A DNA stretch of 64,000 bases from Dimargaris cristalligena (lineage: Eukaryota): NCBI GenBank assembly GCA_003614675.1, contig ML002225.1, positions 1 through 64,000 on the forward strand. Reading direction: 5' to 3'. Positions 1,711 to 63,549 of this stretch are shown here, piece after piece. A program made the translations under genes and the position numbers. How positions within the stretch are numbered: the stretch's first letter is position 1; every line of letters begins with the position of its first letter. Below the pieces are notes generated by a model that did not search any database, was not told where the DNA came from, and worked only from the letters and a program-made list of their open reading frames with translations.

Positions 1711-4700
1711 TAAGTAACAGATCTGGGGAGTACACTCCCCTCTGATCCTTCATTTCAACTTATGGTACAGGTGTGCTCTCTGTAGGAAGTACTGTGATTT
1801 TTTAAGTGTCTTCCATATAGTTATAAAATAAGGCTCAATTTTTAACAGAAAAACAGAATGTTTTCACTTTATTACCACACCCTGTACTCTATATCTCATT
1901 GTAGTGCCTTGCAGTATACCACATTCCTGGTAGTCCTACATCTATTTGGAGTTGCCATATAGAGATCAGAGGGGTTGGCCACTCTGGAAAGGGCTACATA
2001 TTGTTGGCCATAAGAAAAGATGTTTCAATTAAGGAATACTGCTACCTTGGAGAGTGTCTGGCCCTGTGACTTATTAATTGTCATGGCAAAGGTGGCTTGA
2101 ACAAGAAATTGCTGGCGGAGAAACCTGATTGGTACCTCCACACCTGAGTAGGAGATGTTGATCTGGGGAATAATGTGGATATTTCCTGAATCAGTGCCAT
2201 CAGCCTAGGACACCCAAGGTAAACTGGGACATGCTCCTCACAATGACATGGGTGCCATTGCAGAGACCTTGGCTTGGACTTAGATTCTGCATAAGTAGGA
2301 GGGGCATCCCAAGCTTAATATGCAAGGAATGTGCAGGTATTCCAGAGATCTCAATGGTATATCTGGCTACAGTACTACCAGAGTCTTCATCATTGGCAGA
2401 GTCTACAGAACAGTATACAGAGCCTACCCCAGGCATCATGGAGATGGCCAAGTCATTGATGGCCCTGACATCATCATTGTAAGGGGTAAGAATAGAGTTA
2501 GAGCTGATTTCATTGGGATAAAGATATTGACATGCCAGGGATGGGTATACCAAGATAAGGAGGGCTCGGGGATCAGTTGAGGACTTGATCCAGGGCTCAG
2601 GGATAGGAATGTTGATACCCATGTCACCTATAGCCATGTTAACTATTTCAGAATGGGCCATGGGGTTGTCCCCTTGCTCAAAAGGATCCACAGATCCCTC
2701 TCCCAGCCATAGAAGTTGATTAGCAAAGACTCCAAGGGTAGCTACTTCTTAAAGATTCTGGGCATGGCAGAGGATGTGCATGTTCTCAGTGAGCCTGGGA
2801 ATTTGGACATATTGCCAGATTGATAGTGAGTAATGGATAGACGCCTGAACAATCTGGAATCTTGCTCCTCAGTGAATGACTGGTAGAATCTGGTGAAAGT
2901 CACCACCAAATACCATTAACTTTCCACCAAAAGGAATACTGGAGAATTCCGGATCTTGGACACCCATTAAGTCTCGTAGAAAATGATCAATGGACTCAAA
3001 GATATTCCGGTCAGTCATGGGCACCTCATCCCAGATAATGACAGCCACAGCAGAGATAACAGAGGCCCCAAAGCTATTGACACTTATGGGGATCTCAGTA
3101 TTAGTAAAAATATCCAGTGGGATCTTGAAGGTACTTTGGGCAGTAGTACCACCCTCAAGGACAGTAGCCACAATTCCTGATGAAGCCATGGCTAAGGCTA
3201 CATGATTTTTGGATTGATCATAGCTGAGGATAGTATTAAATACCATTGACTTACCAGTACCCCCTGGACCATCAAGAAAAAAGACTTGGGGGCCTGGGAT
3301 TAGCAGAGAGTTGAGGATAGTAGAGTTAATTTGGGCTTGGATTGTCTTAAAGGCCATCCGTTGTCCTTAATTTAATTGTACAAATCTTGACTGATACTTG
3401 CAATCCTCATCCTCCTGGTGGTAGTGGGCTAGGGTTCTTTCCAGATGTGTTAGAGTATGCTCATTTACCCTATAGCAGCACTGGATATCTTGAGGGAGAG
3501 AGGGAATGACTTGTAGGGAGAGGCTGGACATCTTGAGCTCATTACCAATGTCTTGTAGAGCATGGCACTTGGCATCCTCAGTAGTAGCTTGGGTACTAAG
3601 CATAGTATCCAGTTGCAGGGCCCCAGTATTAATTTGATAGTAGTAGTCCTCAGACATGGATCTCTTAAATGCAGTCCACAGGGCACTGGGATCTGATGGA
3701 TTGCAGAAGGCCAGGATGTAGACAAATAAGGACCAAATGGTAGCAGGGTAGGTTACAGATGCACAAGCCTTTTCCAGGCACTGTTCCCACTCAGTGTCAT
3801 CCACCAGTAGACCATAGGCCTTGGCTGATTCTTGGAAGGTAGGGTAGAGGATACCCTCAAATGCCCATAAGTCTTCAAAACACTTTGGTCCTGGAACTTG
3901 GGTAAGAAGAAGCCATAGACAGAATCTTTCTTGATCTCAAGGTGATGAAAAGTACATCCAGCCTATGATAGGCTTACCACATTGCATACAACGTCTCCAG
4001 CACTTTTCTCCAGGAAGGTACTGGTAATACTTGGGGATGGAGGGGTAGAGGAGGCAGGCAGCTTGTTCATCCTCTTGGCAAAGCTTGAAAAAGGCCAGAA
4101 GGGTTGATCTAGACTCTCGGGAAGTAGCAATAATGGCTTGCATTTCCTCAGCTGTTGTACTGGCTTAGAAATGCACCTCATGTTGCTCTAGTAGATGGAC
4201 AGCAAGGCAAACAACAACTGGGGAATGGCTTTGCATAGAGAATCCCAGTGTCCTCCAGATGGCCTCATGCACAGCAATATACCGGGTATTTAAAAACTCA
4301 GAGATTTCATCTATCTCCATCTCTGTCACTTCTCCTTCCACTTGTCTCTGACCTCAGAGAATAGCTTAGGCCCTGTCACTGCCCTTGGAGATATACTTAC
4401 AGATGTACTTGACCGCAGAAACAGTGGCACAGATCTCAATATTGATATGGACATTATACTGTACAGTCAGAAGAGGGTTGTAAGGGACTACCCAGGCATT
4501 ATCAAGGATATGTTGACCATACTGGAATTGCTGTCCTCCACACCTCTGATGGTACTCAGGGTATCCCTCATGGGTAACTGTAGTTTCCACCATATACTGC
4601 TTGGGGAAGCCCTTACTGCATACCCCTTCTACAGTACACTGGGCCCTTGGACTCATTACCCCACGGGGCCCATGGATGAGGCTATGTGTGACAGTTGCAT

Positions 4701-7700
4701 AGAGGGCTGGGTGGATTGAAGGGTCAGGAATCTCAGCCCAGGCAAAGCAATCAGAGTCTGAGGTAGATCTGGGCTTGTTTGGCTCAGCAAGGAAGAGGAT
4801 CAGGTGCATATGAGGAAGGCCCCACTTCTGGAACTCAATTGTATAAGCAAAGGCAGTAATAGTACCAAATATTTCAGATCAGCAGATGTTAGAGAGCATT
4901 TGCTGGACCTTAAGATCAAAGACCTGGCAGACAATATCAGGGTGGTCATTAGCAGACTGGCCATATTGGAGTTCACGGACAATCTCAGGCCATTGTGGGT
5001 TGCAGGTGAAGGTGATGAATAAATCTGGTTTACCATACTCCCAAACAATGGCAATAAGGTCTTGGTACAGCTGGCCCATGTACCGGGCACCACTGGTAAA
5101 GGAGGAGGGAAGGACAATCTGGTGGCCTATACCACATGCAGAAAATATACTGGTAGTATCCACCTGTTGAAGCTGATCCTGAGCACTGGCGTAGATGGCT
5201 GCTTGAAGTTCAGCCTGGTGGAAGCGGATGTAGCTGAGCCTGCTGGCCTCAATCTGGATGTAGGAGTCAACAGCCCATTGATGAAAGAGTTCGAAAATCC
5301 TGGATTGCAATGCCTTCCTTCACCATCATCTGGTAGGCAGTATAGGCTCACAGAGTAAGTTTACATCCTTGGGCACTATTTGTCACTGTACTAACTTGGT
5401 CACCCCTGGTAGAAAGTCGGAGATCTGTTGACCATCCATCATAGCCATAGGGGAAAATCAAGACATAGATGAGGGGGTTATAAGAGGCATGGTATTGACT
5501 AATTAAAGACAGACCATTGGTATTGTCCCTAACTGTAATACACTGATCCAGGATCTGCCCATCTACCACATTTTCTACAATTAATGCCACTACCTCAGGG
5601 ACTGAGGGCTGATCATACCTCTGCCCAGCACCTCTATTAGTAACAATATTAATACAGAGACTTCCATGGGGAACATCTTAGTATTGGGTAGCAGTTATTT
5701 GATATTGCTGCACAAATGGGTTGACCTCATGGAGCATAGTATTGACTTGGGAAATTAAGTTAATATCAAGTCCATCCACAATACTTGCACACTATCAGTT
5801 CTGCTCCTCCAGATCATAAAAGTAGATCTGCCCAAACTGGGCTCCATTGGCATCACCATTATGTTGCAGGGGAGGGGCTTGATGGTAGATACCACCACTG
5901 ATCCGGAAAGTTGATACTCCATTAGATCCATTGGCCAATATGGGATTGAAATCAGCAATAAAGGCACCAAAGGCAAAGATCGAGATGTAGGCACAAATGT
6001 TAGTACGGAAATGGCTAGACTGCCTATGAGTACCTGAGAGGAGGTCCTGGAGGAGAGGAGGGAGAGCCTGCTGTCTTGGAAGGCAAATAGCTCCAGAGTT
6101 ACAGCAAATTTGGAAGGTGCTACAGGTGCCAGATTCTTGAAGCCTTTTACCTGGGAACATGTGGGTGGCACAGAAGGAGCATATATGATTCATTGGCCCT
6201 AATTCATGCTGGAGTAAGAGAATGGGGCCAGGGACGTCAGCAGATCCTGGGAGGTGGTGGACAATATCCTCAGTAAAATTAGATAGACATGCTTATAGAC
6301 AGACAGTGCCCTCAGAAGGTCCCCCTATTGGCTCTTGAACTGAACTGGTGGCCCTTAATCCTTGGTAATTTGCACACAGGTGGCTTGTCATGCGTTGGTG
6401 GTCTGTACCCCCACAACTTCCACAATGCTGTTGAAAATTAGGACAGAGTATACTGTAATGCACTGGTGATCAGTGCCTCCACAGCTTTTGCAGTGTACCA
6501 CAAAATGAGGGCATAGCTGACTGGTAATGCAGCTATGATTGGTACGACCACAATGGTTGCATCCACAGGCTTGTTGGTTGGTTGTCTCAGTGGGATCCAT
6601 CTATAATTAAATTATATAAATATATATATATGTGTGTGTAGGAAGGATTAGTAGGTGTATTAGAAATTAATATCCTTATGTTATAATATTCAAACTATGC
6701 CTTAATCTTATGATTTGGGTACTATATTGAAGTTAAAAAAAGGGGTGGTGGTGTGAGAGGGTGAAGGTGTATATTAAATATCTAAACATAATGCATAATG
6801 TATATGGGGTGGGTGTATATATATGTGATGTGGATACACGTGAATCCCTCACCACACTGTATTGAAAACTTCCATTTTTAAAAAATACTTAAAAGGAAAT
6901 TTAGATTGGAGTTTTGTATGCGGACACAGATAATGTTAGTTATCTCTTTGTGTAGCTGAATTGAAAAGAGTACAGTAAATATTTGAATCTATAAATTCTC
7001 ACTTAACTCCAGATATATCATAACAATATCTAAAGAGAGTGCATATATATTCTAAAAGGTAAATATCTTAGCCAAAGTATTTGAAAAGGGTAGAAGTACA
7101 AAAACCTCAAAAAGTGTAAGGATATTTTTGCAATTGCATGTATTTTTTGGTAGCTGTATGTAATTTTTATAATGTTATTACTGTTAACCTAAATGTTGTT
7201 GTGTTACTGTTTCTTCTGTGAAAATGTGTGTTTGGGTCTGTATATGTATATTGTATTCATAAAAAAGCCCAATTTGGTATTAAGATGGCTTATATCACAG
7301 AAATAGTATGCTGTACAGGGAAGAGGGCAAGATAGACAGGGGTAAAGTGGGGGTGGGGGGGATACTTATAGATGCCAGAGAGTGGAATGCTTGGATGGGT
7401 AAAAGAGGATGCTACATCTGGGAGAGTAAGGTGCCCTATTCCTGTAAACTTTGTTGAAGCATCTGTGTCAGGATGATGGCATTTCAAGTCTGTTTATTAG
7501 TACATTTATACTCTCAAGGTCCTTATCACCCACCTCCTCCCTTTCCCCCTCTACTGCCTTTAATATATATCTTTTGTTTCAGCTGTGTGTATGTGCCTAT
7601 GGGGATAGAGTATATAATGTATAAAGTATATGTATGGGTGTGGATATAGCACCTGTTAATGAGTGATTCAGCAAATGGGTAACTAAAGAGGATAACAGTT

Positions 7701-52082: not shown

Positions 52083-52808
52083 TCTGACGGAGGTTGGTTA
52101 AAACTACAATTCATAAGTACAGGAGGATGGGGGAATGTTAGGTAAGGAACGGAAAGGCTAAGGGGTGGCGCATGAATCACTTGCGTTGCCGCTAAATTCA
52201 GCATATAGTCTGAAGTAGGTGTTTTAATGGACTGGAATTTACTTCTGTCCTTCCTGGGCTGAATATGAAATGTGGACTGGTGGTGGCCGCTGCCTTGTTC
52301 CTGTGGTGTTGAAAATCGCTTCACTGGCCATATTAGTACATTAGAGCACAACCTAGCCGCACTTGGGTTTCCTACCTATATGGGAAGCCTAGCAGCTCAC
52401 CTGACTAGCTGCCCTATTAAGGACAGGGTCGCAGCGGCCTCTCCTTCTAAAATGGAAGACTAGATGGGGGTTGCTCTCCATTTTATCTCAAGTCGCCTGA
52501 CCCATCAGGCCCTTTTGGTTCGCTGGTTCCCCACGGAGTCCTGTAGTTGTAGTGGTGTATACGTAAAGGATGCCAACAAACTACTACTATATATGCGCAT
52601 TGATGCACCGCCGAGCTTGTTCGGGTATATTTTGCTAATAAACAGCTGAACTACCGAGTCTCTTCTTCCAGCTCTTCTTTTCTTCCGTTGCTCTCTACTC
52701 TATTGGTGCCAACTCACCCACCTCGCTTATCAGTTTCCGCCTTGCTCGGCTCACTCCTTCCCGAATCTTCCCCCACGCCCGTCCCTAGCAGTTGACCTCA
52801 CTCTCCCC

Positions 52809-54481
52809 ATGACCCATTTCCTCGAGTCCATCGCGGAGTACGCGGACCTCTGGTCGGACGGCCTCCGCCCCGTGCTGGCCGGGCTCAACCTCGAGAAACT
52901 GACATACCACTGGCCGGTGGTACTGGCTAGCACTTTGGCATGCTCTCTGATTTTCACCCTGTCGGGCATCCTCTCCCCCATGCTGTTCCCCGCCAGCTTC
53001 CGTAACATGAAGGCCTTCCAGCGTATCAATTGGAATATCCATGTCGTCTCCATGGTTCACTGCTGCCTGGCCCTCTACTGGAGCTTCCCGCTTATCAACC
53101 ACCCCAAGCTGGCCGATGACTATATTAACAGCTACTGGCCTTATTTCAGCAACATTGCCGCGGTTTCGTGCGGGTAAGTTCTACGGAGCGCCTCCCCTCC
53201 AAGACCAGCTAATATTTCGTTGGGGGAAGTGTAGGAGGCATGGTCCGTGTCAGCAGAGAGTTCCCCTGTTTGGCCTATCGAGTTGACGGCCCCCACACAC
53301 CCTACTGATCCCGAACATCTCTGTTAACACTGTGGTACAACCCGACCTGTTCAACCCAACCACCCGGTTGCATATTTATAAAACAATATATCGGGTGTTG
53401 AAATAACGCCGGTATCTTGCAAGACAATATGCATTCCCCGTATTATAACCCCTAAACAAAACTAACTCAAGCCCGGGCATTCTATGCCGCCATGTAATCC
53501 ATACAGATACTTCCTCTGGGACTTTGTTGTCTCCATGCGCTACATTAAACAAACCGGGATTGGGTTTGCCGTGCACGGCCTAGGTTCCTTCGCCGTTTTC
53601 CTCCTCAGCTTTGTAAGTCAGGCCAAGTCAATGCCGGTTATTTTATGTGTCCATTTCCTCTGAAAATGTCACGATTTCACCCTTGTTGGATACGAACGGC
53701 TCAGTAAAAATGTTAAGGGCAAATCTACGATTATTGGTTTATTGGGCTAATTAATATATAATGTTGCATATATCTAAAAATCCCCGCTCCCTTCCTACAT
53801 TCTGACTATGATTCGGATATTATGCCAAACCCCTGACAGAGGCCCTTCATCAATGCCTATGGCCCTGTGTTCCTGATGCTCGAGCTTAGCACCCCGTTCC
53901 TGAATCTCCACTGGTTTATGGATAAGCTGGGAATGACGGGCAGTTTGCCCCAACTCGTTAACGGTGTTATTCTGCTAGCTACCTTTTTCGGCTCCCGGCT
54001 GGTTTTCGGAATCTACTGGGCCATCCATCTCTATAGTAAGTCACCCGATTCACTTCCTTCTACATAGGCATTGGAATCGTACCAAATTGAGGCGCCGTCT
54101 TTCTGATTAGTGCAACTGAATGCCAACTATTGGTACTACTCATACAACCACTGGACATGAGCCTGGCCGACAACACCCTGCCAAGCCCCCCAAGTGACAC
54201 CCAGTGACTATTAGCCGCCCCATCTCTCTTCTTCGCAACGTTCACTTAACATTACTGACTGACTAACCCAATATCTAACTCACATCCTCTTCTGTCCCAA
54301 TATCCGATCGCTAGCCAATTTTTACCACAACTGGGACACGGTACCCCACTATCTGGCCATCAGTGTCGTCGTGTCCAACATGGCTCTCAATATTCTCAAC
54401 TTCTTCTGGTTCAGTAAAATGGTTTCCGCCATCCGTGGCCGTTTCGACCAACCCGTCGAAAAGGACATCAAAATGGACTAA
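52809..54481 (+). CDS. TLC-domain membrane protein (TLCD4/TMEM56/Tda4-like), paralog 1
   Basis: Exons 52809-53173, 53507-53612, 53840-54035, 54315-54481. Motifs WNIHVVSMVH, SCGYFLWD, ELSTPFLNLHWFMDK, LNFFWFSKM. Confidence 0.92.
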
Positions 54482-56403
54482 CTCCCATTTGGTTTTGGAT
54501 CCATCTGATCCAGGGGTTAGTTTTTACTTAAATTTATATACATATACGTATATTTGTCTTTAGTTATCTGATGCACGTCCATCGCCCAAGGGCGGTATTT
54601 TTTTTTCTCTTTCTTTTAGGACACTCTGGCTCACCCGATCGTATAATATTTGCTGAATGAATAGAATAGACGTGCAGAGCCCCCTGGCCTTGGCTAGTGG
54701 CCTGCACCATGTAGTGCTTATTAGTAATAAACTTGTGTGCCATTTGATGGGACCCCCCGAGTCGCTTGGACACTCCTATGGGGGAATTGCGACCCATAAG
54801 CCATTCCAAACCCACTGCTTCCCTTTAAGATGGCTTTGGGGACAGTTTCTAGTTAACTGGCTAAATGGATATTTTGGTCATACAGTCATCTGTGCTGAGT
54901 GGTACAGTCGGAGAGTTTCCCCTATCTGGTAACAGTGACGTGGTTTAATTTAGGTAGGTTTACAGCACTTACATCATGATGGCTGAAAAAAGGATTAGAA
55001 TGATCTATATGAGTGGGGGAGGGGATGTATGTGGTAATGCGGCGGTAGTCAGGCCCGCGAGGATGAGGATCCCAGCGGAAAGTTCATAATGATGGCGATA
55101 CTCCCTCACTCAATCATATTAAAATACTCGGCTTCGGCTCGGTGGAGCCGGTTAGACCAATCAAGTATTATATGAATGGGAGTGATTTGACAGTTATATA
55201 CATATATATTATTATTGGTATATTCCTGGACAGCCGGAGGGTTTTATTGATACTACACTTTACCAGCCAGTTCATAACATGAACGGCCGGTGCCCCAGCC
55301 AATGAATTACCCTGTGACTTTGTAGATAGGATACAGTAGTAAGCAGTAGTGGCTGGCAGGAAAAGAGTTCAGCCACGCTATTCGCCTGACCTGACCTGTT
55401 GTTACCCGACATGCCTCTAAGGACCAATCAGGGACCGGGCTGGTCTGTTGGCCAGGTGGCGTGTTTTACATTGGCCTGGGGGGGAGGACTCTGCGGCGCG
55501 CCGGTGGTGTTTTATTCAGTCAGGCTTAGCAAGTGTTACAAGAGCATGAGGAAAATAATAGAAAGATAGAGAGCATATAGCTCATTTACTCTTGTTTTTA
55601 GTTTCTCTTCCTTCTCCCCTGAGTTATCAGATGGTCAGACGGCTACCGTATAAATACTCCTGTATATCCTGCTGCTAAAGGGACATTGTTATTTGATTCT
55701 CTTTCTACCTGCCCTTTTTATATTCACCAGTTCAATTGTGTTATCTTTTTTGGTAATCCTGCAGAGGTGTACACCAGTTGGTACTGTGTAATACATACCC
55801 TACATGCCTTAGTTCATTTAGTGGCTATTGTTATTTCTACCTTCGAACTGTATTAATTTAACGACCACCTGTCTAAAAATCACCCTGCCCCCCCCACTCC
55901 AGTCCAGTGGTAGTCGCGCTCCTCTTTCACACAATAGTTAGGATTGTCGACAGCCCATGAACTGTACTTAATCTATATAACCCACACACCCCCTTACCCT
56001 TATTACCCTTACCTCTTTTCCCCGCACCATAATCGCGGCCACTGCTTATTAAACAGCCCTCGTGCTGGTAACCCTGACCTAGTTGGTTCCGCGCATATAT
56101 ATATAATACACACACGCGTACACTTATATACAACGTCACCCTTTCCCCCTCTCTTTCCTTGGTGTAGAGCCCGTTCATAAACGACGTAAAGGAACCCGCT
56201 GTACAACCTACCTGGGCCCTTCTTTTATATAGTCCAATACCCCTTTTATTATATTTTTATACTGGTCTAAAGCCTTCATTGACCAGGTCGATTTGTAGTC
56301 CATTTCACCTTTAAATTCCTCCAAACCCCCCTTCGGCCCTATTGTTTGGCTAACCACAGCCCTTCCCCCCCTTTACCGTTGAACATACGGATTCCCACCC
56401 ACC

Positions 56404-57853
56404 ATGTCGCTCGTTTTGGGGCAAGCCGACCACTTTGTGAGCCGCATTTCGGAGGGCATTCGCCCAGCCCTGGCCTCCCTGAACATGGAAACTTTTGCCA
56501 ACCACTGGCACATTGCCTTTGCCTCCATGCTGGCCTGTTTCCTCATTACCGCCGTATCCGAGCGGGTCTCGCCCCAACTGTTCCCCAAGGCCTTTCAGAG
56601 TATGAAGGGATTCCAGAAGACCAACTGGCACATTCATGTGGTGTCGTTGGTGCATAGCATCGTTTCGTTGGTCCTGTCCTACCCGCTCATTAACCACCCG
56701 GAGCTAACCAAGGACCCCATTGGGGTTTACTGGCCCCATTTCGGTAATGTGACGGCGATTTCCACTGGGTAAGTGACAATTCTTTTTTTTTCTTCTTCGT
56801 ATAACATCGTTTTATATCTGCGCACCGCTTATTCCAGTCGGGTGGTACTGTATTGGTAACTGCAGTATGGACTGCGGTGGTTCTTCCTCACCTATATCCC
56901 CCCAACCGTTCGCTTCAGCTTCAGCTAGGCTCTGGAGTGGGGGACCTATGGGGGTAGTAGCAGTAACAGTAGTGGTAGCAATAACCTAAGATTTCCTTAT
57001 CTCGTGAGGGTGGCCCCTTTTACCCTAGCTAACACCTGATATTACCCTTTCACCACCCTGTATTTTGGAATCGTGGTTTCCCTTATTTAGCTATTTCCTG
57101 TGGGACATCTACGTGTGCCTGCGTTACATTCGTCAAACGGGCATCGGGTTCTTTCTCCACGGGTTTATCGCCTGCTTCGTCTCCCTCATTAGCTTCCGCC
57201 CCTTTATCAACATGTACGGGCCCATGTTTATCATGGTTGAGCTGAGCACCCCGTTCCTCAATATCCACTGGTTCATGGATAAGCTCAAGATGACCGGCAG
57301 CATGGCCCAACTGATTAACGGCGTGTTCCTACTCGGGACCTACTTTTTGGCCCGCTTGCTGTACGCCCCCTACCTGGCCTACTGTGTGTTCTGTAAGTTA
57401 CTACTCCATCCCCCCCCTTCTACCATCCCACTTCACCGCACATTACTACCACCATGGGTGGATTACGCTTCCTATTTATCCCAAACGGATTTTAGAAGCC
57501 ATGGTCATTATGGCCTTTTCTCGACGTTAAACCATCATTGTCTGCTCTATGTACCAACCCACTGTTGAATGATACATGGCCGATGGAGATAGGTCGATCC
57601 AATCGGGTAGTTTACTGACTCCCACTGTGTGTATACGTATATCTCTATATCCCATGCACTCCGTACTTCTGGCATATTTCTCCCCCTCACAGCTACCTTT
57701 TATCAATACTGGGGCGAATTCCCCGCCTACCTGGGCTACATTTACGTGGTCCAGATCATGACTCTGGTCATCCTCAACTTCGTCTGGTTCAACAAGATGG
57801 TCAAGACGCTTCGCAGCCGATTCGAGTCCCCGACCCCGAAGAAAATGATTTAA
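56404..57853 (+). CDS. TLC-domain membrane protein (TLCD4/TMEM56/Tda4-like), paralog 2
   Basis: Exons 56404-56768, 57091-57392, 57693-57853. Motifs WHIHVVSLVH, STGYFLWD, ELSTPFLNIHWFMDK, LNFVWFNKM. C-terminal KKMI fits a KKxx signal. Confidence 0.92.
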
Positions 57854-59648: not shown

Positions 59649-61022
59649 TCGTCGAATGATAATCCGCCCCTCGCTGCCCCTGGCCCTGGGCCCCGCCCCT
59701 GTTCCTGCTCTCCGCCAGCCAACAACGGGTGGTAGGAAATTTCGACGCATAGCCCCCCCCCCAACGCTTTACAATTGGATCTATTCGCTACTATTATTTA
59801 TCCGGCTACTACTCCCATAACTTTGCTTCCTCCACCCCTGTGGCTTTGCCCCCTCAAAAAAAAATGCCGGTTGGTATTTGCCTATTTATTCTGCTTCAAT
59901 TAGTCCAGCAGGGCTAATCGGGGTTGGTCCTCTTTCTGGTTATGATGGTTGCTACCTTCGCTTCTCAATAGCAATAAAACAAGCTGTCTCAATAATAACC
60001 TCCATAGTCCCATATCCCGGCCAGTATTGTGCGACGCAGCTTAGGATGCACATAGCTAAACCCTAAGATAGGGTGCATGTCTTTTTTACGAAGGCGCTTC
60101 AGGTAATCGATTGTCCGGTCTAGTCGTTTCAAGAGTAGTTTTGCTGGGAGAATAGCTAGCCATGGCGCTATGCTTGAGCTGAAGGGGACCAGCAATTACT
60201 ATGAATAGCGAGTGATTGTTTTCTTAGTATCAGTGAAGTATTGAGATAGAGTATGGTTATTTGGTTGTTCAGTCCCTTCTGGCGGCAACAATAGCGGCTA
60301 ACACTCAATAATAGTATGCCGTTCCACCGAAAGCTAATCGAGAGCGAGTGGGCCAGCTTGGTACTGGTCCGCAAGTGTACTGACGGGACTTAGTCATTAA
60401 AATCACTCATATTCAGCCGTCGGGAAGGGGAGAGATTGCGGTAACATTAGAAAATAGTGGGCGATGGTCCCTATTGAATATTTACGCATCGTCATTTCAA
60501 ATCGAAAGTTGTACATAATGCAGTAAGCTTGCAGTCTGAATAGTTTGGAACCCATGTCAATCGGGAAGTAAAAAATCCACTCTAGTCACAATGGTAGTCA
60601 AAGCGTGCCTACGTGTAGTGTTCGATCGTGGTGCAGCCTACTAGTCACCTAATGCCCAATGTTGCCAGCTTCATCGATTCACTAATATACATCGCAGCGA
60701 GCCCCAACCACGACTTCAATCTTAGCTATTCACAATTAGACGTTACTAACAAAATCTTTTTTACTTTGGATAATAAAGCGGGCCATTTCCAAACCCTTTT
60801 CTCTCACTCAAATACACCTGTTACAGTAGTCATAAGAAAATATTGCCATAAAGACAACGTTTTATTCGGGTCCCAATCGCTGGTGGTGAAGGGGGAATAT
60901 AAAGAGACAGGGTTGTATGGGATAGGGGGAGGGATTGCAATAAGAAGGCTTATGTTAGAAGAGAGAAACAACATGGTTTACGAGATAAGATCAAGTATAT
61001 ACCGGATTAAAGGTATATATTT

Positions 61023-61592
61023 TTACTCTTCTTCAACCACGGTGGTCTTCTCCGACACGTAGATACCGTCCAAAAATTTACGGATATCCTTCTTGCGGGC
61101 AATGGTGGACTGCTGGATGCTGGCGGCGGACTGGGAGACGTTGGCGACATCGTTACCGTACAGGATGATCTCGTCCTTCTGGGCGGTGGAGACCTCGCAC
61201 TTGACACCCTCGAGCATGGGCACGCGACGCACGACCTTCTCACCCAAGAAGTTGCGGATTTCAATGTGGTCACCGCTGTCGGAGATGTTCACGTTGATGG
61301 GGAAATGCGCGTAGACGAAACGCATCTTGTACTTGTAGCCCTTGGTCACACCGGTGATCATGTTCTGAATCAGCGAGCACACGGTACGGATGCAGGCAAC
61401 GTGCTTGCGGTTACCACCCCAGACGACCACACGGATCTGCTTCTTGCTGACGCGCTGCAGCTCCATGTTGATGTGACGGAGGTTCTTGTTCAGAGTGCCC
61501 CGGGGACCCTCCACCTTGATGTCGCGAGCCTTGATCGACACGGTGACACCCTCGGGGATGTTGATAACGTCGTCCTTGTAGATGTCCTTCAT
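61023..61592 (-). CDS. RPL9: 60S ribosomal protein L9 (uL6)
   Basis: 189 aa with [42 protein letters not shown]. Confidence 0.98.
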
Positions 61593-61604
61593 TTTGCTTT
61601 AAAT

Positions 61605-62288
61605 CTGCGGGTTGGGAATAAATTATACGACGAAGGAACGGTCGGTTGGATTGGGTAGGTGGGAATAGAGGGGTATAACCAATAGTAATATTATATTTTA
61701 GAGTTAGTGGAAGAGCGTGATTCAATAACCCATGCTAGGCATTTGGAATAAGGAAGGGGTGAAGGCAACATATGGTGTGCTGCCAAAGAAGAGGGACGCA
61801 AGCGAAGTGTCCCGAAGGCCCCATTCAGACTTGCGAATCTTCCAAACTTCATTGAGAAGAGTGTCGCCTTCCCGCTCTCGTACGCAGTCTACTCGGTATA
61901 CCAACAGTCGACAGTCCCACAGCCGATACCATCCGCTCATTCGACTATCCATCCATCCATCCGTTTGTGCATAACCTTGGCGGGTCCAGGTAGATTGTCC
62001 GGGTTTAAGCAACGTGTATACGCCCCAGGCGTGAGATGGTCGAGACCGACGTGCGGGGTCGAGTGACATTAGGTGTGCCTTAGGACGGTAGGCCCGCTTC
62101 GACGGTTGGTGGGAAGTGTCGTTGACCTGTACCACATCCGCGGCGTGTGACGACTTGATAGGATGGATGGATGCACGGCTGGTTGGATAGGTAGATAGGA
62201 TCGTGTGGGCTGGTCGAACTGTGGGCTGCGTACGAGTCGACGGCCGTGGACGGGGGATTCGATAGAAGAATGCAGTGACGACACTTAC
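61605..62288 (-). other. 684-nt structured 5'-UTR intron of RPL9
   Basis: Donor TG|GTAAGT at 62288. Acceptor CCGCAG| at 61605, 12 nt before the ATG. CTAAC at 61703-61707. Extensive internal inverted repeats. Confidence 0.8.
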
Positions 62289-62913
62289 CACCGAGGTGGA
62301 AATCCGTCGACTGATGAATTTAGTACAGGATTAGGGAAGAGAAAGATTTCGGCAGCCACGGCCCATAATGCTTTTTAACTCCTATTCTTTCTTTCCCTCT
62401 TCTGGTAGTCACCCTACTTTTTGCCCTGGCGGGGGACTTCGCTGGGTCGACTAGTAGGGGGGGGGGTGGCATCTGCTAACACACACCTGGGCTGATGATG
62501 ACTTAGGTGGAGTAGGCTGCCGAGTGGTTTGCTATATTGAGTCACGTGCCAAATAGTCTGGGCAGTGTATAACCCCCAAGCTCAGAAGTTAGACCAGTTT
62601 CACCATTTGGGGGGGAAATTCCACGAACGATGGTTGATAATAATAGTCTTCCGCTCACTCTTATGGTGTTCCTTGGAGTCAAAACTGGGAGTTTGTTGGT
62701 GGGACTTGGAGTTGAGCGAGAGATTCCCCCCCCCACTGACGTTGAAACGCTTGGTGGCCCAAAGCAAGGCAGAGGTGCTCCTCCATTATTAGAGAGTGGT
62801 TCTTACCATTTCATTCTACATCCGGATTCCTCTCTTTAAACCCTCCCCCCTCATTCTTATAACCTTTTCGCCATCTCTTGCCTCTTCGATCCCTTCGATT
62901 CCGTCTCTGAACC
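62289..62913. promoter_or_regulatory. RPL9 non-coding exon 1 and divergent promoter shared with the NDUFB11-like gene
   Basis: Head-to-head genes about 0.6 kb apart. Pyrimidine tract CTTTCTCTTCCCT (minus strand, 62345-62333) is the likely RPL9 start. TGAGTCACGTG at ~62538-62548. Confidence 0.55.
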
Positions 62914-63549
62914 ATGAGTTTCGCCAACCTCCGCGGTCTGGGCACTTCTCCGCTCCACCGCCTCTCCGCCCGTAGCGCCCTTCTGCGTCGGGCCGGCATT
63001 GCCCAAGAATATAACCGCCCCAGCGGTTGGCTGTTCGGTGAAAAGGTACGCCTATCCTACACAGCTCTATGCATCTTGCCAGTACCTATGATTCCGGAGC
63101 CCATTCGCTTGGATTTACTCCCCAGCTCCAGTTGTAGTGCTTTACTATTATTTTTTGGCTAGGGGTTGAAGCGATTTCGCCCCAGCCCTCATGGTATCCG
63201 CTGAGCCTGCTCCCGCCCTGACCGTCGCTTACCCCACTGTAAATCGCTACCTAGTTCAGTACTGTCTTTGCATACACTCTCTAACCTCAACATATATCTA
63301 ATATACCTAATCTATTGATTGTTTTAATAAAAATCTAACTAGCCGCTTAAGCCCGGCCAGAAGCGCGTCTGGGAGGCCTGGGAATACCCCTGGTACTACA
63401 TGTACTATGGCGGTATGGCCCTGGCCGGTATCGCCCTCTACTACAAGCCCGATACTAGCGTACAGGCCTGGGCCACCGTCGAGGCCAAGCGTCGTCTGAA
63501 GGAACGCGGTGAATACTTTGACTGGACCTCCACTGAACTTAAATGGTAA
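62914..63549 (+). CDS. NDUFB11: NADH:ubiquinone oxidoreductase ESSS subunit (complex I accessory)
   Basis: Exons 62914-63045 and 63343-63549. Arg-rich presequence, YNRPSGWLFGEKP...WEAWEYPWY, one TM helix, YKPDTSVQAWATVEAKRRL. Confidence 0.9.

Follow-up and report, generated by a model that had tools for sequence, protein, structure and literature searches.

The stretch of DNA analysed here (the window) comprises 64,000 nucleotides (nt) of Dimargaris cristalligena, positions 1 to 64,000 of the forward strand of contig ML002225.1 (GCA_003614675.1), and near its far end it carries, on the minus strand, the gene for the ribosomal protein uL6, RPL9. The product is encoded by a single uninterrupted open reading frame (ORF) and matches the Pfam family Ribosomal_L6 (E 4.6e-30). 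Fungal L9 proteins align with it over their full length, the top named match being that of Tieghemiomyces parasiticus (77%), and the L9 proteins of other Dimargaritales (Zoopagomycota) show 72% (Dimargaris verticillata) and 71% (Dispira parvispora) identity; a 25-residue N-terminal extension of the D. verticillata protein is uninformative. Upstream of the start codon lie the signals of a leader intron, and our subject is the predicted structure of the RPL9 precursor mRNA (pre-mRNA) around the 5' splice site (donor) of this intron. The gene is laid out as follows:

61026..61592, minus strand: RPL9 (uL6) coding sequence, 189 amino acids; stop codon at 61023-61025.
61605..62288, minus strand: putative intron of 684 nt in the 5' untranslated region (UTR), placed by its signals.
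62289..62345, minus strand: putative non-coding exon 1, with a pyrimidine-rich 5' end and no ATG; its start is a guess.

The putative intron opens with the donor GTAAGT, directly preceded by a G, and has a candidate branch site, CACTAAC, at 61709-61703 (minus strand). The branch site is followed by about 99 nt free of AG, and the first AG belongs to a CAG that lies 12 nt 5' of the RPL9 ATG, whose context (AAAATG) is rated good. Taken singly, such motifs occur in the window at about the frequency expected by chance and are not enriched, with 31 copies of GTAAGT and 37 of ACTAAC on both strands together. By our rough estimate, the ordered series of donor, branch site, AG-free stretch and CAG near the ATG would arise by chance with a probability of about 0.001-0.004, and we consider it likely that the 684-nt leader intron is real. 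The first-pass annotation of this locus had predicted that retention of the intron would put several AUGs ahead of the RPL9 start codon; we counted 13, while exon 1 has none.

The base composition of the region is compatible with either an intron or a promoter. The ratio of observed to expected CpG is 1.08 in the bin 61601-62400, which is similar to the coding sequence, as compared to 0.72 for the whole window, and it falls to 0.81 in the following bin (62001-62800), into which the 5' part of the region reaches. CpG content thus does not decide between the two. A TTAGGG lies at 62331-62336, where exon 1 is proposed to start, and a CACGTG box about 200 nt upstream, at 62543-62548; both are ribosomal-protein promoter motifs in other fungi. 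The same upstream region contains a run of ten G at 62457-62466, which in a second strain (run X5) is longer or shorter by one base.

In silico folding predicts that the donor is engaged in a hairpin with the end of exon 1, a structure that does not appear in the first-pass annotation:

62273..62313, minus strand: predicted hairpin at the donor, with 21 bp and a CUCG loop; exon-1 arm 62313-62296, other arm 62291-62273.

The whole GUAAGU sits within the stem, in the arm 62291-62273. The hairpin has a predicted energy of -17.8 kcal/mol (z-score -3.45), and none of 200 shuffled sequences was as stable. On the opposite strand the same segment folds with -13.2 kcal/mol (z -1.76), that is, 4.6 kcal/mol less stably, because the transcribed strand profits from G.U pairs, and this asymmetry hints, weakly, at RNA-level selection. 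When the calculation was repeated with fixed windows centred on the donor, the window from -30 to +20 reached a z of -3.65 (1/150 shuffles), whereas of 150 random 50-nt windows of the 64-kb stretch none reached -3, the lowest value being -2.89. Four other donors in the window have local z-scores between -1.23 and +1.50, and the predicted cost of opening positions -3 to +8 is 3.0-7.2 kcal/mol for them versus 10.9-14.0 kcal/mol for the RPL9 donor. If this locus has a control point, it would more likely be the hairpin between exon 1 and the donor than the switch that had been proposed for it.

That switch was built on a second sequence that is complementary to the donor, located within the intron:

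62108..62122, minus strand: candidate anti-donor, the 15-mer ACGACACUUCCCACC, with 14 of its nt complementary to 62292-62278.

The two partners read ACGACACTTCCCACC (62122-62108) and GGTGGTAAGTGTCGT (62292-62278), and the lone mismatch, C.U, lies opposite intron position +2. The duplex has a predicted energy of -23.6 kcal/mol. When the remainder of the intron was dinucleotide-shuffled 1500 times, the exact donor 15-mer found a partner to match the anti-donor only once. When all 741 15-mers of the pre-mRNA were ranked by their best partner, the donor 15-mer came ninth, with the top eight places all taken by 15-mers from a microsatellite helix (see below). All sequences that the first-pass annotation had listed were found where it had placed them. 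It had also pointed to further partners of the donor region, and such partners do exist in the sequence, though at chance level: the second-, third- and fourth-best were equalled in 159, 118 and 179 of 250 shuffles, respectively, and a target extended to exon 1 plus donor was likewise non-significant (157/800 shuffles). These additional complementarities trace to a cluster of GTCGAC palindromes, possibly a motif of the RPL9 promoter and leader at the level of DNA. Four copies fall within 540 nt, against 0.18 expected from the 13 in the 64 kb, and TCGA reaches its window-wide peak here, with 10 in one kb.

61860..61868, minus strand: GGCGACACU, extra donor partner with -15.2 kcal/mol, the second-best partner and at chance level (159 of the 250 shuffles above).
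61907..62451, no strand assigned: cluster of four GTCGAC palindromes, starting at 61907, 62236, 62306 and 62446.

The third element is a long inverted repeat, whose arms form a stem that encloses the anti-donor:

62161..62236, minus strand: 5' arm of the inverted repeat, 76 nt, C-rich, ending in (AUCC)3.
61877..61962, minus strand: 3' arm of the inverted repeat, 86 nt, G-rich, beginning with (GGAU)4.

The arms are separated by 198 nt, and the repeat encloses 360 nt in the middle of the intron. The first-pass annotation had described five sub-helices of this stem, all of which are present, and RNAduplex pairs 62244-62161 with 61962-61866 in 68 bp at -86.2 kcal/mol. When the arms were shuffled separately, the observed energy was reached in 0/500 cases (2/500 without the (GGAT)n part), and none of 150 shuffles of the whole intron reached it. 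An inverted-repeat score was less exclusive, as three ways of scoring gave 15, 1 and 9 matches, respectively, in 400 shuffles. Among 93 consecutive 684-nt tiles of the window (median 346), all eight top-listed ones (lowest 418) score above the intron (406). The minimum free energy (MFE) of the 391-nt segment corresponds to a z of -1.09 on the transcribed strand and of -2.04 on the other. The long stem is thus a real but moderate inverted repeat. At its inner end, the (GGAT)n and (ATCC)n runs are the only two of their kind in the 64 kb, and Tandem Repeats Finder reports just the longer one. At the outer end the repeat is bounded by an 11-bp perfect terminal inverted repeat. A second copy of the arms does not occur in the 64-kb window, and inspection by eye revealed no target-site duplication or flanking direct repeat around the inverted repeat. 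The 11-bp terminal helix contains two donor-like sequences, GTACGC (as in the real donor of the neighbouring ESSS gene) and GTACGA, at 62233 and 61883 (minus strand), and these cryptic donors would therefore be masked once the stem forms.

How the three helices relate to each other was examined by folding. In the ensemble of the full pre-mRNA, the anti-donor pairing has a probability (P) of about 0, as opposed to 0.58-1.0 for the long stem and about 0.9 for the core of the exon-1 hairpin, and forcing the anti-donor helix costs +15.2 kcal/mol. Folding of a series of transcripts of increasing length, mimicking the minus-strand RNA as it grows, gave three stages:

Transcript ending at 62200: the donor is predicted to pair within the exon-1 hairpin.
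Transcripts ending at 62100 to 61990: the donor is predicted to pair with the anti-donor (P 0.91-0.99).
Transcripts ending at 61940 and beyond: the long stem is predicted to form, the anti-donor pairing has P 0.00, and the donor is in the exon-1 hairpin again.

The long stem and the anti-donor helix hence exclude each other as long as folding is nested, and once the anti-donor is evicted the donor re-enters its 21-bp hairpin, such that it is paired in every state. In this respect the earlier proposal of a two-state switch that controls access to the donor holds in one half: the helices are exclusive and swap with transcript length in the nested model, but the accessibility of the donor does not change with the swap. 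The accompanying claim that the two crossing folds compete likewise depends on nesting. A pseudoknot containing both helices comes to -217.6 to -227.2 kcal/mol as compared to a nested MFE of -212.8 kcal/mol, according to a crude estimate in which loop entropies are left out of account and the penalty is an assumed value. Since this estimate lies below the nested MFE, crossing helices need not compete and may coexist.

The arrangement of the long stem resembles the zipper stems of yeast introns, which join a part of the intron near the donor to one near the branch site. The 5' arm starts 52 nt past the donor G (62288 to 62236), and about 168 nt lie between the end of the 3' arm and CACTAAC (61877 to 61709); this placement of the arms fits the zipper definition of Rangan 2025 (PMC12350175). 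The resulting linkers of about 220 nt (52 + 168), however, disagree with the 42-85 nt required by that definition and are too long for a zipper. The stem also failed by structural distance: the path from donor to branch site is 54 in the folded RNA (linear 579), versus 53.4 +/- 20.4 for shuffled sequences, 40/80 of which were at least as short.

The reading that we favour, tentatively and as possible rather than probable, is that a donor-occluding structure limits or tunes the splicing of RPL9, in the manner of RPL30, RPS14B or RPL7B. The 5' splice site is paired in all predicted low-energy folds, either with the last ~25 nt of exon 1 or with the intronic 15-mer 166 nt downstream; the inverted repeat displaces the anti-donor, at least in nested folding, and thereby sends the donor back to the exon-1 hairpin. 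With the donor occluded, access of U1 would become limiting and open to tuning, and so would RPL9 splicing, and unspliced RNA would be unproductive because of the 13 AUGs preceding the start codon. That there are two independent complements to the donor, one of them strand-specific, argues that its pairing is not accidental. Formation of these helices in vivo, as well as any regulatory effect, is an extrapolation from the folding models, and free uL6 as the sensor is a guess.

Several observations weigh against this reading. Splicing from 62288 to 61605 and the start of exon 1 are read off sequence signals only. The z-score of the hairpin drops to -2.78 and -2.07 in wider windows (10/150 shuffles for the latter). 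For the anti-donor, the 14-of-15 complement across the donor noted in the first-pass annotation stands, but its significance does not extend to other definitions of the donor window, as 305/1500 shuffles do as well for -10..+15 and 248/1500 for -3..+8; since the counts shift in this way, the significance hinges on a post hoc choice of window, and we estimate a corrected p of about 0.01-0.03. The GTCGAC palindromes together with the two inverted microsatellites could, as features of the DNA, incidentally give rise to complementarity in the RNA. The non-transcribed strand folds even better than the transcribed one (-95.2 versus -86.2 kcal/mol for the arms, -160.3 versus -132.6 kcal/mol for the segment), and nothing therefore marks the long stem as an RNA-level feature. 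An Rfam search of 60500-63000 with E-values up to 10 returned just a chance-level match to a Na+ riboswitch inside the coding sequence and none in the intron, which also speaks against the alternative, entertained in the first-pass annotation, that the stem flanks a known small nucleolar RNA (snoRNA); across the whole window nothing scored above the Rfam gathering thresholds, and a look by eye for box C/D and H/ACA motifs in the loop found nothing convincing. The second strain differs by 5 bases and one indel over 1701 bases, with intron substitutions at 61778, 61985 and 62010 and none within the elements; this is uninformative, as only about 0.8 hits to the elements are expected by chance. 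Among RPL9 homologues from metagenomes (80 loci, best identity 64-66%), the 13 that were inspected have no comparable pair of donor and branch site; at their starts they resemble the L9 genes of budding yeasts or other distant ones, and they were therefore unsuited to an alignment of introns. Finally, for a gene expected to be highly expressed, a donor occluded this strongly is unusual.

The intron could also be real with its helices being functionless by-products of a foldback-like insertion or inverted duplication, of (GGAT)n microsatellites and of GTCGAC palindromes, which we think somewhat unlikely; the spliceosome would then disregard the complementarity. Much of what is known about the inverted repeat agrees with this, namely its equal or better folding on the non-transcribed strand, the ordinary segment MFE (z -1.09), the score of 406 below all eight top-listed tiles of 93 (median 346), and a distance from donor to branch site (54) no shorter than in shuffles (53.4 +/- 20.4; 40/80). 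The excess of GTCGAC (4 versus 0.18 expected) and the chance-level partners explained by it agree as well. What a by-product does not readily account for is that two independent complements hit the donor itself (0/200 and 1/1500 shuffles), that the hairpin is strand-specific, in favour of the transcribed strand, and that the four other donors of the window are predicted to be open; an insertion is also not reflected in a second arm copy in the 64 kb or in a target-site duplication visible by eye. If there were no intron at all, RPL9 would start near its ATG and 61600-62480 would be its promoter, in which the repeat, the GTCGAC and the CCACC..GGTGG palindromes would, if active, be DNA elements. 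The unremarkable frequency of GTAAGT (31) and ACTAAC (37) in the window allows for this, as do the A/T-rich, TATA-like stretches located about 34 and about 95 nt 5' of the ATG with a pyrimidine tract after them, the enrichment of palindromes and the location of one GTCGAC upstream of the supposed exon 1. We nevertheless hold it to be improbable in view of the ordered intron signals that end 12 nt before the ATG (chance about 0.001-0.004, by the rough estimate above), the position of CACGTG and TTAGGG (which are known as promoter motifs in other fungi) 5' of, or at, the proposed exon 1, and the greater stability of the donor hairpin on the transcribed strand.

A function of the long stem itself would be compatible with donor occlusion. 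The stem could act as a zipper-like enhancer that loops out 360 nt, or as a double-stranded signal to RNase III, in which case the unspliced RNA or the lariat would be the target. Its pair probabilities in the ensemble are 0.58-1.0, and looping out would leave 684 - 360 = 324 nt, near the lengths of other introns in the window (297, 333 and 322 nt). Zipper stems are described as common in long yeast ribosomal-protein introns (PMC12350175, PMC2536676), and Rnt1p is reported to degrade unspliced RPS22B and RPL18A pre-mRNAs (PMC8047918). Against this stand the linkers of about 220 nt instead of 42-85 nt (PMC12350175), the structural branch distance that is no shorter than in shuffles, the many bulges of the stem, the missing advantage of the transcribed strand, and the ordinary folding of four coding-region introns (z -0.69 to +0.26, with the ends of one, MT_i2, slightly misplaced), such that a functional long stem, too, seems quite unlikely to us.

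Donor occlusion can be extended to a three-state, co-transcriptional RNA device in the RPL9 leader, which we regard as very unlikely. The exon-1 hairpin would form first, the anti-donor would take over the donor after ~250 nt have been made, and the 3' arm of the repeat would then either reset the system or lock it into a pseudoknot. This would create a timed interval during which either U1 or free uL6 chooses between splicing and an unproductive RNA loaded with upstream AUGs.

The introns used for comparison lie in the coding regions of other genes of the window and were placed by reading frame and by the points at which Pfam matches are truncated:

63046-63342, plus strand: ESSS intron, 297 nt, donor GTACGC, branch site TCTAAC.
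53174-53506, plus strand: intron of TLC paralog 1, 333 nt, donor GTAAGT, branch site CTAAC.
56769-57090, plus strand: intron of TLC paralog 2, 322 nt, donor GTAAGT, branch site CTAAC.

Four coding-region introns of the window have fold z-scores of -0.16, -0.69, -0.24 and +0.26, i.e., no excess structure (the ends of the fourth, MT_i2, as folded were slightly misplaced, and that of TLC1 lacked one base), and long stems are therefore not general in this genome. The lengths of the three introns listed above suggest that introns of about 300 nt, which is long for fungi, are usual here. ESSS, which encodes a complex I subunit, is the divergent neighbour of RPL9 (62914-63549, plus strand) and has one intron, with a non-consensus donor (GTACGC) and a branch site (TCTAAC) just 4 nt before its TAG acceptor. 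The TLC-domain (TRAM/LAG1/CLN8) paralogs are neighbours of each other (52650-53620 and 56383-57568, plus strand) and share the position of their intron at the same codon. At 2200-6300 (minus strand) lies a decayed Helitron-like element with ORF fragments of a PIF1-like helicase (E 2.3e-44) and of Helitron_like_N, which stops and frameshifts have scattered over several frames. Stop-to-stop ORFs of at least 150 amino acids number only 22 in the 64 kb, and the CpG ratio is about 1.0 over RPL9 and the upstream 61601-62400. This suggests that much of the window is non-coding or degraded DNA which has lost CpG outside of active genes.

To our knowledge, feedback of ribosomal proteins at the level of splicing is documented almost only in Saccharomyces. 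Besides RPL30 and RPS14B, the genes that control their splicing through pre-mRNA structure include RPL22B, RPL7B, RPL18B and RPS22B. In S. cerevisiae, RPL30 and RPS14B autoregulate their splicing through structures in their own pre-mRNAs, and L30 reportedly binds the nascent RPL30 transcript. The RPL9 leader resembles these two genes in that a helix between the 5' exon and the 5' splice site would be the control point of splicing. It differs in that its exon is non-coding, its protein is uL6, its host is a zoopagomycete and not a budding yeast, and an additional complement to the donor lies in the intron; we identified no kink-turn or other protein-binding motif in the RPL9 structure. Feedback through structures of the 5' exon and donor is a known principle according to PMC12311795 and PMC13232506, with RPL30 and RPS14B (printed as 'RPS41B') named in the introduction of the former.

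The nearest analogue of the two-state model is S. cerevisiae RPL7B, where a zipper enhances splicing and a mutually exclusive alternative is the binding site of Rpl7 (PMC12311795). In the nested model, RPL9 would share with it the mutually exclusive long-range helices in the intron, but both of its alternatives leave the donor paired, and its linkers are too long for a zipper. The zipper of RPS17B (Rogic 2008, PMC2536676) and those of Rangan 2025 (PMC12350175) likewise bring together the intron regions next to the donor and to the branch site; they do so with linkers of 42-85 nt in total as compared to ~220 nt in RPL9, whose stem adds no structural shortening over shuffled sequences.

A different precedent concerns the uL6 family itself. 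According to PMC8047918 and PMC8216456, yeast Rpl9 binds a stem-loop in the 3' end of the RPL9B mRNA and thereby sets the mode of transcription termination. Both cases would combine a protein of the uL6 family with a stem-loop in its own transcript. The yeast element, however, is located at the 3' end, and the 3' UTR of the D. cristalligena gene has no excess structure (z -0.41). The yeast RPL9B stem-loop was not recognised in the folded 3' flanks of 10 yeast-like loci, an eleventh having no flank, and this comparison was dropped. In the literature on RPL9/uL6 regulation we found no description of intron-based autoregulation of uL6.

The structure around the RPL9 donor is thus a well-defined candidate that can be tested cheaply, proposed from in silico folding rather than demonstrated as an element. 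If it were to act in the way that we tentatively favour, it would represent a second route by which uL6 senses its own excess, one that is mechanistically unlike the 3'-end control of yeast RPL9B. The three-state device, if true, would be the first case of ribosomal-protein feedback at the level of splicing outside of the Dikarya, and the first for uL6. A structure-gated uL6 donor in a zoopagomycete would further mean that the logic of such feedback is older, or has evolved repeatedly.

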